From the IMG/VR virus record IMGVR_UViG_2896589216_000002: a stretch of DNA of 34,924 bases. The stretch is one strand, 5' to 3'. Position 1 is the stretch's first letter. Each line of letters begins with the position of its first letter. The position numbers and the translations under genes are program-made. The DNA comes from a virus (taxonomy: Duplodnaviria; Heunggongvirae; Uroviricota; Caudoviricetes). Of this stretch, positions 30,018 through 32,984 are shown piece after piece. The notes below the pieces were generated by a model that was not told the origin of the DNA, searched no databases, and saw only the letters and a list, made by a program, of their open reading frames with translations.

Positions 30018-30076
30018 GCCTGAGGGCAGGTGTAAAACAATAATCAAGCATGGGGTTCATATCCATAGCTCCATTT

Positions 30077-30622
30077 TTATTTTAAGGAAAGCAACTGCTC
30101 TACGGTCATGTTTTTAATTGCGCCCCGGTTTACAAGAGTCCAGCCCTGTTTTTCCAGATAAAACCGGAAAGTCTCCAGGGTACAGACCAGTGCGCCATCA
30201 GGAACGGTTTCGGTGAATTCGACATTGCCGAATTTGTCGAAGTGAACAACCAGAGTGCGACCATCACCCGGAATCATCTTGTCAGCAGGTGGGGTGTTAT
30301 TCTGGCGCAGTTCGGCCTCCATGCGGTCGAACTCAGCAATGTAGGCTTCCTTGAATGTGGCGGCTTTTTTGCCCGTGAAGCCCATCACCAGGAAAACGAA
30401 GCCGTTTTTGGTGATTTGGTAGGCGTTATAAGAATTGCCGCGGTGTTCGAATTTAACCCGCGAAAAGTTGCTGGTTAAAAATAGTTCAGAACATTCGAGG
30501 GATTCTATTTTTTGAACAACATGGTGATGCTGCTTGCCAAAAAACTCAGCAATCGAAATAGAAGTAGTGACGGCGCGACCATTTTCGATGGTTACGTCAG
30601 GGTGAGAAAGGGTAGTAGCCAT
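30077..30622 (-). CDS. Rha-family phage regulatory protein, ~182 aa from ATG at 30622
   Basis: N-terminal Rha motif (VTTSISIAEFFGKQHHHVVQKIESL); RBS gagga 8 nt upstream; longer 274-aa ORF in track is probably an over-extension. Confidence 0.65.
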   Translation of the reverse strand: MATTLSHPDVTIENGRAVTTSISIAEFFGKQHHHVVQKIESLECSELFLTSNFSRVKFEHRGNSYNAYQITKNGFVFLVMGFTGKKAATFKEAYIAEFDRMEAELRQNNTPPADKMIPGDGRTLVVHFDKFGNVEFTETVPDGALVCTLETFRFYLEKQGWTLVNRGAIKNMTVEQLLSLK

Positions 30623-30788
30623 AATGACATCCTCAAGTGATAAGTTAATTAACTCACCAGCAGAGGTGCTAATCTCATGGGTGGTGAGACGCACAGGGTT
30701 AGCACTACCGGTCACTCGAGAACCCGGCCAGCCTTGCGGCTGCCCCGCACGCCTCACCATAATTTGAATGTGGCTGTGCATTACGCAT

Positions 30789-30814
30789 AAAAAAAACCGC
30801 TTCAGCGCGGTTAT
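30789..30814 (-). terminator. strong rho-independent terminator
   Basis: Minus-strand hairpin aaccgcgctgaagcggtt followed by T8. Confidence 0.7.
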
Positions 30815-30866
30815 GCGCTCGAGTAACTTTCGGGGTGCTAATCCCGGCGCCCGTTTTATGAGGTGC
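30789..30866 (-). ncRNA. candidate ~80-nt small RNA or leader transcript bounded by the promoter and terminator above
   Basis: No start codon inside; predicted RNA gcaccucauaaaacgggcgccgggauuagcaccccgaaaguuacucgagcgcauaaccgcgcugaagcgguuuuuuuu. Confidence 0.4.
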
Positions 30867-30872
30867 AGGTGC

Positions 30873-30901
30873 ATTATAATTCCACCCGTTCTGGTTTTCA
30901 A
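30873..30901 (-). promoter_or_regulatory. near-consensus sigma70 promoter (TTGAAA - 17 nt - TATAAT) reading toward lower coordinates
   Basis: Minus-strand ttgaaaaccagaacgggtggaattataat. Confidence 0.55.
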
Positions 30902-30939
30902 TAGCTACATTCAACATTTTCTCTTTCCTTTCATCACCG

Positions 30940-31085
30940 AAGTGAATTTTGTGATGCGGTGCCTAGTGCCTCCAGGTGACGTTAACCAGTTAACAATTAC
31001 AGTCGGCTTTCCCACCCAAACCAATAAGGACTAACATGACTTTTAACTGTGCCGCGTGCGCTTAGCCGCATTCACCGCATCACAA
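30940..31085. repeat. 22-bp perfect inverted repeat (aagtgaattttgtgatgcggtg) flanking a 102-bp spacer with central gttaaccagttaac palindrome
   Basis: Arms at 30940-30961 and 31064-31085. Confidence 0.8.
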
Positions 31086-31086
31086 A

Positions 31087-31150
31087 ATTCACTTTAAAAA
31101 GGGCGGACATCAGCCAGCAATTAAACCGATGCCGCCAACTGGTACTTCAC
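31087..31150 (-). ncRNA. DicF-like small RNA candidate
   Basis: Downstream of ydfA in a dicA-led operon; hairpin GGCGGCATC...GATGTCCGCC + T5; resembles the DicF core as I recall it (GUUUGGCGGUAUCAG...CUGCCGCCCUUUUU). Confidence 0.45.
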
Positions 31151-31338
31151 ACAGCAATGTCGTTATTTACAACCGGAAGCGCACTCCCACCATTTAAATT
31201 TCACAGACAAGACCGACTCTTTATGAATACCGGAAATGCGCCTTCGTGTTGTGCCCGGTTTTATTTCACCACCTCCGGGCTTTGGTGGCCTCGGCTATAC
31301 CTCTACAGCGAGAATATTGAATTAATCCAATAAATGGA

Positions 31339-31491
31339 TTAGCTGGTATTTTTGGCAAGCCAGCGACGTGCGCCAGCTTCGGTTTTAAACGTTTTGCTTT
31401 TGGTATACGTCATGGCGGTGAATGTGCCGTCCTGATTGGGAAACACGCCACACACTAGGGATTCGTTGTTGCCAAGATCGATAGTATCCAT
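31339..31491 (-). CDS. ydfA: YdfA-like protein (DUF1391), 51 aa from ATG at 31491
   Basis: MDTIDLGNNESLVCGVFPNQDGTFTAMTYTKSKTFK... closely matches Qin YdfA; RBS gagg upstream. Confidence 0.75.
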   Translation of the reverse strand: MDTIDLGNNESLVCGVFPNQDGTFTAMTYTKSKTFKTEAGARRWLAKNTS

Positions 31492-31693
31492 GCTGACCTC
31501 ATTTCCCCTTAACGCCGGGGTAGCGGAACTGTTTGCTGAGAACACCGTGCGGTGTCTTGATGAATGAAATTTAGAATAACCTAAGGTGTTGGGTTAAGAT
31601 TTTATGTAGAAAAACCTAAGTTTTTTTGATGTAAAAAACACAAGTGTTTGAAAGTTTGTGCTTTTTATTACAGGGTGTGGAGAAAAAAGGGGA

Positions 31694-32101
31694 TTATTTG
31701 TTTGCGCTTCTTTTGCGAGCTTTGAGTAGTTCTTCAAAAAGTTTGTTGAAATTTTCAACTCGAGCACGCATCTCTGACAACAGGGCCTTTTGCTCTGACT
31801 CAGGCAGTGCGTCGAACAGTTGAAGTAACTCTTTTTGATCTTCTGTCAGAATGGCTGGCTGATTATCCGGGATCGGTTCGCCTGGTTGTTTATCTTCATC
31901 CCCAAAAAGAAGCCAAGTCGGTGAGCACTGAAGCGCTTGGCTCAGTGCGAATAATCTTTTCCCCGCCGGCTGTGTTTCATCTCTTTCCCATTGAGAAATT
32001 GTTACGTGAGCCACTTTGACCAGCTTACCTAATGCGGCCTGAGACAGTTTTAATTTTTTACGCCTATGTAAGAGGCGAGCACCGAAGGTTTCGTTTTTCA
32101 T
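31694..32101 (-). CDS. dicA: DicA-like XRE-family HTH repressor, 135 aa
   Basis: Motifs LQCSPTWLLFGDEDKQP, LFDALPESEQ, EMRARVENFNKLFEELLKAR match DicA; divergent from a Cro-like gene. Confidence 0.8.
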   Translation of the reverse strand: MKNETFGARLLHRRKKLKLSQAALGKLVKVAHVTISQWERDETQPAGKRLFALSQALQCSPTWLLFGDEDKQPGEPIPDNQPAILTEDQKELLQLFDALPESEQKALLSEMRARVENFNKLFEELLKARKRSANK

Positions 32102-32177
32102 ATTAGGGAATTCTAATTTTTCTTGACTTAGGTTTCTCTACGAGCTAGTTTCCTTAGGAAAATCTAAGGAGCTCGAT
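32102..32177. promoter_or_regulatory. dicA-dicC divergent control region with repeated CTTAGG/CCTAAG motifs (candidate operators)
   Basis: ttaggga, gacttaggttt, ccttaggaaaatctaagga; same hexamer recurs downstream of dicA (31580-31630). Confidence 0.4.
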
Positions 32178-32406
32178 ATGTTGAAAATTGATGCTATAGC
32201 GTTTTTTGGCAGCAAAACAAAGCATTGCCAATGCCGCAGGAGTTAGGCTGGCAAGCATTGCTGCATGGGGGGAACTGGTTCCTGAAGGTCGCGCGATGCG
32301 CCTGCAAGAGGCATCTGGCGGGGAACTTCAGTACGACCCCAAAGTTTATGACGAATATCGTAAGGCAAAACGACCTGGGAAGGTGATTCATGAAAATCAG
32401 GCATGA
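32178..32406 (+). pseudogene. dicC: DicC-like Cro-type regulator with a 1-nt insertion near 32223-32224
   Basis: ATG frame gives MLKIDAIAFFGSKTK then stops; +1 frame continues (S)IANAAGVRLASIAAWGELVPEGRAMRLQEASGGELQYDPKVYDEYRK matching DicC. Confidence 0.7.
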
Positions 32407-32812
32407 GCACATCGAATCAGTGCTGTTAGCCCTGGCAGCCGAAAAAGGGCAGGCGTGGGTCGCTAACGCAATTACTGAAGAATATCTGCGGCAGGGGGGC
32501 GGCGAATTGCCTCTGGTACCAGGCAAGGACTGGAACAATCAGCAGAATATCTATCACCGTTGGTTGAAAGGTGAAACGAAAGCGCAAAGGGAAAAAATTC
32601 AGAAACTGATCCCTGCGGTTCTGGCAATTCTTCCGCGTGAGCTGCGTCACCGACTCTGTATCTTCGATACCCTGGAACGCCGTGCATTACTGGCGGCGCA
32701 GGAAGCGTTGAGTACGGCAATTGATGCGCATGATGACGCAGTTCAGGCCGTTTACCGGAAAGCACATTTCAGCGGTGGTGGGTCGTCCGACGATTCTGTC
32801 GTTGTGCATTGA
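32390..32812 (+). CDS. YdaT-family protein (Rac ydaT-like), 140 aa
   Basis: Position after the Cro-like gene; start overlaps dicC stop. Confidence 0.45.
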   Translation: MKIRHEHIESVLLALAAEKGQAWVANAITEEYLRQGGGELPLVPGKDWNNQQNIYHRWLKGETKAQREKIQKLIPAVLAILPRELRHRLCIFDTLERRALLAAQEALSTAIDAHDDAVQAVYRKAHFSGGGSSDDSVVVH

Positions 32813-32903
32813 TGTTTATGCCGAACCTCCTCTGGTTCTGTTGATTGGGGAATCACAGATTATATCCGGAGGAAGGTTCGGCACCAGACGAGGTTTCTAT
32901 ATA

Positions 32904-32984
32904 TGAGCATGAAACTAATGGCAAAAGCAATGGAAATTAAAGTGGGTAATCCATTGCGTAAGCTGGTTCTGATTAAGCTGGCTG
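32904..32984 (+). pseudogene. N-terminal stub of a replication-initiator-like (lambda O / YdaU-like HTH) gene, cut by IS911
   Basis: MSMKLMAKAMEIKVGNPLRKLVLIKLA then IS911 IRL at 32985. Confidence 0.3.

Follow-up and report, generated by a model that had tools for sequence, protein, structure and literature searches.

The DNA of IMG/VR virus record IMGVR_UViG_2896589216_000002 (Caudoviricetes), analysed as one stretch of 34,924 nucleotides that is referred to here as the window, contains between positions 30,018 and 32,984 a small group of regulatory genes that ends in rha and is flanked by insertion sequence (IS) elements. This interval very probably harbors a portable antisense-RNA cassette of the type known from the immI operon of phage P1, the immunity region of satellite phage P4, and the isrK locus of Gifsy-1, which carries rha as its cargo and is located in an IS-bounded remnant of a Rac/Qin-type prophage. 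The parts of this cassette and their order, the fold of its C4 RNA, the complementarity that co-varies between C4 and its target sites, and the position of target site a2 over the rha ribosome-binding site were all observed. What is hidden in the interval is an antisense-RNA switch of a known type within a common prophage arrangement, which makes it an ordinary find and not a new system.

The main value of this result is corrective, as two RNA genes are omitted in the annotation of close relatives, where they are covered by an over-long "Rha family" coding sequence (CDS); the RefSeq annotation of these relatives lists no RNA gene at the position of IsrK or C4. A first-pass annotation, made from the letters of the window alone, had considered the interval a likely place for unannotated function. 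Such function is indeed present, but it is not of a new kind, since it falls within the Rfam families C4 and isrK and the paradigms of P1, P4, and Gifsy-1. The cassette is modular: the promoter, IsrK, C4, their targets, and the first few codons move together as a unit that exists in at least a dozen recognition specificities and precedes Rha, ORF6N antirepressors, or Icd/Kil. In practical terms, the question is whether cross-talk still takes place between orphan cassettes in degraded prophages and the intact prophages of Shigella or Shiga toxin-producing E. coli (STEC), which is possible and would not be surprising.

IsrK, C4, and their target sites

The cassette, its cargo, and the elements directly upstream of it comprise the following features, listed in the direction of rha transcription:

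31101-31151, minus strand: diverged hairpin/terminator in the position of dicF
30940-31095, minus strand: conserved dicF-dicB spacer
30705-30917, minus strand: broken N-terminal part of an Eta/Ash-like long open reading frame (ORF)
30873-30901, minus strand: isrK promoter, TTGAAA-17-TATAAT
30790-30866, minus strand: IsrK / seqA-like leader RNA
30677-30764, minus strand: C4-type antisense RNA gene, with a' loop GUUCUCGAGUGA and b' junction AGUGCUAA
30666-30672, minus strand: target site b2, UUAGCAC, five bases past C4
30629-30640, minus strand: target site a2, UCACUUGAGGAU, overlapping the rha Shine-Dalgarno sequence
30077-30622, minus strand: rha, 181 amino acids (aa), intact

Searches with Rfam models identified two RNA genes in tandem between the hairpin at the dicF position and rha, on the strand of rha, IsrK being the first and C4 the second. 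IsrK was recognized by its family model (RF01394, 63.8 bits against a gathering score of 50), a terminator scan, and its target sites; it contains the sites b1 (30835-30841) and a1 (30818-30826), and a Rho-independent terminator composed of a stem (30795-30812) and an 8-T run. The C4 gene scored 78.6 bits with model RF01695 (gathering score 45), to which it aligned over the full length (1-87) with zero non-canonical pairs, and its 3' end has the conserved sequence ...CACCACCC. In P1 and P4, the C4-type RNA is a stable small RNA that RNase P processes from the leader transcript. The isrK promoter matches the consensus at 11 of 12 positions, and the IsrK model starts 7 bases downstream of it; its -10 hexamer (30873-30878) is the consensus TATAAT in the window and TATAGT in the closest relatives. 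An AUG at 30760, inside C4, is in frame with rha without an intervening stop codon, at a place where Gifsy-1 has the separate orf45. Terminator-like hairpins were detected upstream of rha, as the first-pass annotation had noticed when it assigned an upstream terminator to this gene, but the hairpin belongs to IsrK and is not a terminator of rha's own.

The C4 RNA is complementary to sites on either side of it. Its hairpin-2 loop, GUUCUCGAGUGA, pairs over 9 bp with a1 inside IsrK and forms 12 contiguous pairs (9 of which are Watson-Crick) with a2, thereby covering the GAGGA of the rha ribosome-binding site. Likewise, 7 Watson-Crick pairs link the C4 junction GUGCUAA to b1 (UUAGCAC) in a loop of IsrK, and another 7 link it to b2. 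The combined pattern TTAGCAC-N(5-35)-ACTYGAG occurs exactly 3 times in the 34.9 kb, where 0.01 would be expected, namely in IsrK, in the rha leader, and, as the complement, in C4.

To place these sites in context, 16 loci were compared, i.e., the window and 15 further loci from E. coli prophages, Stx phages, ST64B, mEp460, a P2-like phage, Yersinia/Klebsiella phages, Gifsy-1, and a P1-like phage. These were gathered by similarity to the window and form a biased sample, in which the recognition elements are nonetheless the most variable parts. All 15 further loci have isrK and C4 in tandem ahead of a regulatory gene. The C4 loops occur in at least 12 different combinations among the 16 loci, and in every locus they match the sites in their own IsrK at fixed positions (b1 at ~26, a1 at ~41), as well as their own downstream sites, with b2 at ~+5 and, in most loci, a2 at ~+35 to +38; a2 is found at the ribosome-binding site of the cargo gene in nearly all loci. 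Cognate sets of loops and sites displayed 14-17 Watson-Crick pairs, versus 8.9 pairs on average and no more than 13 for non-cognate sets in which both loops differ (222 comparisons). The window shares the b' sequence GUGCUAA and the corresponding targets with the ant cassette of the 933W-type Stx2a phage F451 (L010:992-1076), from which its a' loop differs; the non-cognate score for these two loci is 11-13, versus 16 for the cognate set, which makes partial cross-recognition between cassettes conceivable.

The fold of C4 was assessed in an alignment of 16 sequences, consisting of 15 loci and the CI RNA of P4. Of the two close relatives of the window, L001 (E. coli FDAARGOS_943) and L002, the latter was omitted from this alignment, its C4 being identical to that of the window. 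The three-helix fold comprises 27 pairs, with 99.8% of the cells paired and 14 of the 27 pairs changed on both sides. None of 500 shuffles was as good (0/500), and slid registers gave only 34-46% pairing.

The rha gene and its proposed control

The 181-aa product of rha contains a Rha domain (residues 20-103; PF09669, 92.3 bits against a gathering score of 29.9; phrog_995, 258 bits) and a C-terminal domain (residues 107-181), and is 99% identical to the L002 copy; one database cluster that is 100% identical to it is named Shigella boydii. Its start motif, MAT(T/V)...HP(E/D), is common to P4 Kil, P1 Icd, and the Rha of the window. Relatives of Rha in PHROG carry the labels regulator or anti-repressor, and the most probable role of Rha is that of a regulator of prophage repression, either antirepressor-like or DNA-binding, which is the weakest step of the proposed reading. 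A sequence search with Rha in the PDB gave no match, and the AlphaFold2 model obtained with 24 close homologues (mean pLDDT 53.8, pTM 0.26) was too poor for use.

In L001 and L002, rha is the last part of a 282-aa CDS annotated as "Rha family", with Phage_ASH and Rha domains, that starts at an ATG ~6 bases from the position aligned to the K-12 dicB start codon, spans the isrK promoter, IsrK, and C4, and continues in frame into rha. This long ORF is broken in the window because of an extra T in the U-tract of the IsrK terminator, and the Phage_ASH profile, which is intact in L001 and in P4 Eta, is split over two frames; the tract (30789-30796) has 8 T in the window versus 7 T in the closest relatives. 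The Pfam PF10554 (Phage_ASH) region covers 30677-30917 of the window, L001:8059-8907, and positions 8168-8812 of P4 (L018), and this family seems to represent the translated seqA/IsrK and CI/C4 RNA region. The database CDSs of 281-284 aa that are named Rha family consist of this region fused in frame to Rha.

By analogy with P1, P4, and Gifsy-1, transcripts from the isrK promoter would mostly end at the IsrK terminator, and read-through past this terminator would give the C4 RNA. C4 is predicted to pair with b2 and a2 and to mask the rha ribosome-binding site, by which Rha would be kept off, and IsrK, which carries the same sites, would compete for C4 and could switch Rha on. In intact relatives, a DicA-controlled promoter upstream of ydfA may direct translation of the long Eta-like ORF through the cassette into rha, bypassing C4 in the manner of P4 eta; this bypass route would be broken in the window by the extra T. 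Judged from the sequence, rha is probably not simply a DicA-controlled substitute for dicB, and its own promoter and the antisense-RNA cassette would gate its expression.

Several observations weigh against the cassette reading or parts of it. The first stem of IsrK contains one A-C mismatch, and the c4-a1b1 motif (RF03163) scored 14.1 bits, which is below its gathering score of 46.7, although the sites are present. The separate upstream ORF of the P1 immI and Gifsy-1 type (icd or orf45), with its stop/start overlap, is not present in the window, and the translational coupling step of those systems therefore cannot apply as such. Furthermore, BLASTP of Rha against AnrP gave no match and the profile-profile comparison with ORF6N antirepressors was not significant (E 0.31); Rha thus displayed no significant similarity to AnrP or P1 Ant, and homology to proven antirepressors is not claimed. 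L002 shares the C4 specificity of the window and has a Rha that is 99% identical, but the repressor next to them is only 32% identical, indicating that Rha does not co-vary with the neighboring repressor; in L001, the DicA is identical, the C4 specificity is different, and Rha is 84% identical. Cassette and repressor thus assort independently. Finally, the prophage being wrecked, the cassette may be without a remaining target in cis.

Among the alternatives, the one that survives best, although it is clearly less probable than a cassette that controls rha, is that the cassette is a silent fossil, recognizable but inactive or inconsequential in an IS-riddled genome. The decay of its neighbors (a frameshift in dicC, and truncation of ydaE and of the replication gene), the single T that breaks the Eta-like ORF, and the mismatch in the IsrK stem are in line with this possibility. 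Against it, the promoter is nearer to consensus than that of the relatives (TATAAT versus TATAGT), C4 is without a non-canonical pair, all four target sites have retained full cognate complementarity, and rha is intact and nearly identical to its L002 counterpart.

Two extensions of the cassette reading, taken jointly, are considered rather improbable, i.e., that rha in Rac/Qin-type prophages is subject to a two-input gate, and that the remnant cassette acts in trans on other resident prophages. If the former were true, the constitutive isrK promoter would provide the C4-repressed short Rha, and the DicA-controlled promoter a C4-insensitive long Ash-Rha. If the latter were true, Rha or the C4/IsrK RNAs would target resident prophages that share repressor or recognition sequences, such as the 933W-type b' GUGCUAA.

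It is unlikely that the interval represents a novel hybrid, in which Rha has taken the place of DicB in the last position of an operon repressed by DicA and depends for its control on DicA and a terminator alone, with a possible new function. The gene order and the lack of dicB on which this proposal relied stand, homology to the Qin dicF-dicB spacer extends, upstream of the cassette, to within a few bases of the expected dicB start in the alignment with K-12 Qin, and a DicA operator-like palindrome is located upstream of ydfA. Its rarity is already contradicted, since, of 5426 complete E. coli genomes, 389 contain the junction of DicF-like hairpin, spacer, IsrK, C4, and Rha at no less than 80% coverage and most contain parts of it, and since the databases hold ~1800 Rha clusters. 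Moreover, rha has a promoter of its own that is close to the consensus, its C4/IsrK cassette belongs to known families, and a scan of the window found no operator palindrome TTAG-N6-CTAA close to the isrK promoter. Of the hybrid regulatory module that the first-pass annotation had described, the isolation by IS elements was borne out, but the unusual hybrid character was not.

The proposal that the DicF-like hairpin still functions as a DicF, inhibiting division via ftsZ, and that the fragment is still a division-control module, is similarly doubtful. The element is the positional counterpart of K-12 dicF, being located after ydfA and before the dicB spacer, and it has kept the terminator hairpin (-20.3 kcal/mol; GGCGG...CCGCC followed by a U-tract). 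The DicF-like RNA that had been annotated here is upheld in these two respects, but its score with the family model (RF00039, 28.6 bits) is below the gathering score of 48, and its 5' arm and loop diverge from those of K-12 DicF in the alignment of both. By a crude duplex calculation, its pairing with the ftsZ start region (-30.6, z 0.04) is no better than that of shuffled sequences, versus -38.5 and a z of -1.5 for K-12 DicF, which suggests that the ftsZ complementarity has been lost. The adjoining dicF-dicB spacer is nearly identical to that of K-12 Qin; in the window it has a perfect inverted repeat of 22-23 bp (31073-31095 and 30940-30961) around ~110 nucleotides, folds at -64 kcal/mol, and may act as a processing site or a structured leader. 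A separate STnc100 RNA at this place was rejected, as its 30.7 bits are below the threshold of 47 and the match corresponds to the spacer inverted repeat that is common to K-12.

Least probable is that a long Ash-Rha protein of ~280 aa is what the locus really produces and that the matches to RNA families are a by-product of conserved coding: most database clusters of Rha are indeed called at 281-284 aa with Phage_ASH and Rha domains, and the frame is open across IsrK/C4 in all Rha-type loci examined except the window (in L009 it is partly open), but the C4 substitutions are compensatory for RNA pairing, the co-variation of the loops with two distant target sites is not explained by protein coding, the ORF is closed or out of frame in the Gifsy-1, F451, ArgO145, and P1-like loci that retain the RNAs, and both RNA models score above threshold in the window despite its broken frame. 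In P4, coding and RNA layers coexist by design (PMC10111431).

The surrounding prophage remnant

The interval represents what remains, between IS600 and IS911, of the region for early control in a lambdoid prophage of the Rac/Qin type. Its remaining features and boundaries, in the order of their coordinates, are:

29680-30017, minus strand: IS600 remnant, part of orfA, left boundary
30018-30066, minus strand: ydaE' stub of 16 codons, between rha and IS600 and cut by IS600
31339-31491, minus strand: ydfA (DUF1391)
31571-31584, no strand: operator-like palindrome TTAG-N6-CTAA in the dicA-ydfA spacer, counterpart of dicBp
31694-32101, minus strand: dicA-type repressor gene, 135 aa, intact
32103-32167, no strand: divergent dicA/dicC control region, with TTAG-N6-CTAA palindromes at 32103-32116 and 32154-32167
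32179-32406, plus strand: dicC (cro-like), frameshifted
32390-32812, plus strand: ydaT, CII-like regulator gene, intact
32903-32984, plus strand: replication-initiator-like (O-like) gene, 27 codons, cut by IS911
32985-34211, plus strand: IS911, right boundary

The gene order YdaT-like, dicC, dicA, ydfA, DicF-like, and Rha that had been read from the letters was confirmed by profile searches with Pfam and PHROG, in which every protein fell in the family that the first-pass annotation had named. The dicA-type repressor (HTH_3, 52 bits) is 62% identical to K-12 DicA and 100% identical to the L001 copy, and YdfA (PF07151, 103 bits) is 86% identical to its K-12 counterpart. YdaT matched PF06254, phrog_163 (CII-like), and the PDB entries 8bt1 and 3c4r, of which 8bt1 is the solved structure of a CII-like YdaT; the suggestion that YdaT could be a toxin has to give way to a CII-like regulator as the better reading. 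The cro-like dicC was correctly identified as such, with a P22_Cro match on the downstream frame, but it is not intact: compared with the otherwise identical 75-codon copy in L001 it has one extra A near 32224, by which the frame is lost after ~15 codons. The dicC gene is thus a pseudogene, and dicA and ydaT are intact. A pattern scan found the palindrome TTAG-N6-CTAA only 3 times in the window, versus 0.29 expected, and all occurrences are located within the two spacers that flank dicA, which fits candidate DicA operator sites.

Searches of the whole window by tblastn revealed no gene for DicB, YdfB, YdfC, or YdfD, with K-12 DicB giving a best E-value of 0.16 and no credible match, in agreement with the reported absence of the division inhibitor. 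The lack of likeness to a known defense system was also confirmed, as PADLOC gave only generic HTH matches for DicA, and none for Rha, YdfA, DicC, or YdaT, among known anti-phage defense systems.

Both IS junctions were read from the letters, the IS600 sequence stopping at 30017 and the left end of IS911 (TGAAGTGGCACACTG...) beginning at 32985. The fragment is bounded by these two elements, as had been stated, but IS600 is not complete; only 338 bp match (99.4% identity to the annotated IS600 copies in L001 and L002), and it is therefore a stub. IS911 is 99.6% identical to the annotated element over 1228 bp. The ydaE' stub next to IS600 encodes MDMNPMLDYCFTPALR, the N-terminus of YdaE in L002; when the junction of IS600 and ydaE was searched for exactly among contigs representing one genome per species, it gave no match. 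The replication-initiator-like gene had been reported to be cut after 27 codons by IS911 at 32985, and this was substantiated by the identity of all of its residues (27/27) to the N-terminus of the L002 protein, a 251-aa HTH protein encoded upstream of the replicative helicase. Synteny with K-12 Qin likewise supported the description of the interval as an IS-isolated fragment of a Qin-type (Qin/Rac) immunity region with Rha in the place where Qin has dicB.

As a whole, the window is a patchwork, in which the blocks 4462-5230, 13261-17299, 22966-26232, and 29680-34924 are 98-100% identical to blocks of relatives. The matching blocks are scattered and reordered in E. coli O121 201805972 and FDAARGOS_943/944, and pieces of IS1, IS600, IS911, and IS66-family elements separate the blocks of the window. 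Such a patchwork probably arose when IS elements rearranged one or more Rac-like prophages in a Shigella-like genome, and the identity of the blocks suggests Shigella-like, IS-rich lineages of E. coli. Between ydfA and the DicF-like region (31289-31355), the window lacks ~500 bp that are carried by L001 (9279-9813) and L002, and a short unrelated stretch that replaces them forms a further mosaic joint. Four tRNA genes (Met-CAT, Arg-TCT, Thr-TGT, and Gly-TCC) are located on the minus strand at 24203-24513; the same cluster is found in the late region of the related L001 prophage, where the first gene is annotated as tRNA-Ile.

Comparison with known systems

The Qin prophage of E. coli K-12, with the dicBF operon order dicC-dicA-ydfABC-dicF-dicB (PMC10448788), resembles the interval in its dicA-type repressor, dicC, ydfA, the hairpin at the dicF position, and the dicF-dicB spacer. 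It differs in having ydfB, ydfC, dicB, and ydfD, none of which is present here, where the C4 cassette and rha replace dicB, and in its dicF, the counterpart of which has diverged below the family threshold. The presence of ydaT and a replication gene after dicC is a Rac-like feature of the interval.

The isrK-orf45(STnc1160)-anrP locus of Gifsy-1 in Salmonella (Hershko-Shalev et al. 2016, PMC4825925) is similar to the cassette in having its own sigma-70 promoter, an IsrK leader with a terminator, a C4-family RNA 25 bases downstream, b and a sites at the same positions with a2 over the Shine-Dalgarno sequence of the cargo, and a prophage regulatory gene as cargo. The isrK model and, over the orf45/STnc1160 region, the C4 model match ahead of AnrP. 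The mutants G28A/C162U and G31A/C159U alter anrP translation (PMC4825925), and by position count on the Gifsy-1 sequence these mutations fall on b1-b' pairs. In contrast to the interval, Gifsy-1 carries the ORF6N protein AnrP, without significant similarity to Rha (PF09669), as its cargo; its orf45 ends in an ATGA overlap, whereas the equivalent is fused in frame to rha here; its recognition sequences are different; and its cassette is located downstream of Q, and not in the early-left operon at the position of dicB.

For P4, the isrK model matches seqA and the C4 model matches the CI RNA, and Eta is a 214-codon ORF (Phage_ASH, 82 bits) that runs through both RNAs in frame with Kil (MATTLTPSHPEF...). 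A published account (PMC10111431, summarising Forti et al. 1999) places a constitutive promoter inside eta; it also states that the seqA and CI pairings are needed for early termination, that CI is processed out of the transcript, and that the upstream promoter alone gives full-length Eta translation, which blocks termination. The P4 immunity region (PLE, seqA, CI, seqC, and nested eta/kil) is like the relatives L001 and L002 in having a Phage_ASH ORF over the promoter and the RNAs, in frame with the cargo, and the start of the Rha cargo (MATTL..HP) resembles that of P4 Kil. Differences are the cargo (a 65-aa Kil versus a 181-aa Rha), the long ORF, which is uninterrupted in P4 and broken by one extra T in the window, and the intrinsic terminator in which IsrK ends here.

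The immI operon of phages P1 and P7 was reportedly described by Citron and Schuster in 1990 as c4-icd-ant. In the P1-like phage RCS47, the isrK and C4 models match ahead of icd/ant, and, as in the window, C4 is flanked by a1/b1 and a2/b2, a2 is located at the ribosome-binding site of the first downstream gene, and a potentially harmful regulatory cargo is under control. The P1 cargo differs in consisting of icd followed by an antirepressor with ORF6N and KilAC domains, compared with the single rha gene here, and the spacing between leader and C4 is 44 bases in the P1-like phage versus 25 in the window. Among all of these loci, the cargo behind the cassette varies, and includes Rha, the ORF6N antirepressors (AnrP, 933W-type Ant, and P1-type Ant with KilAC), and Icd-like proteins.

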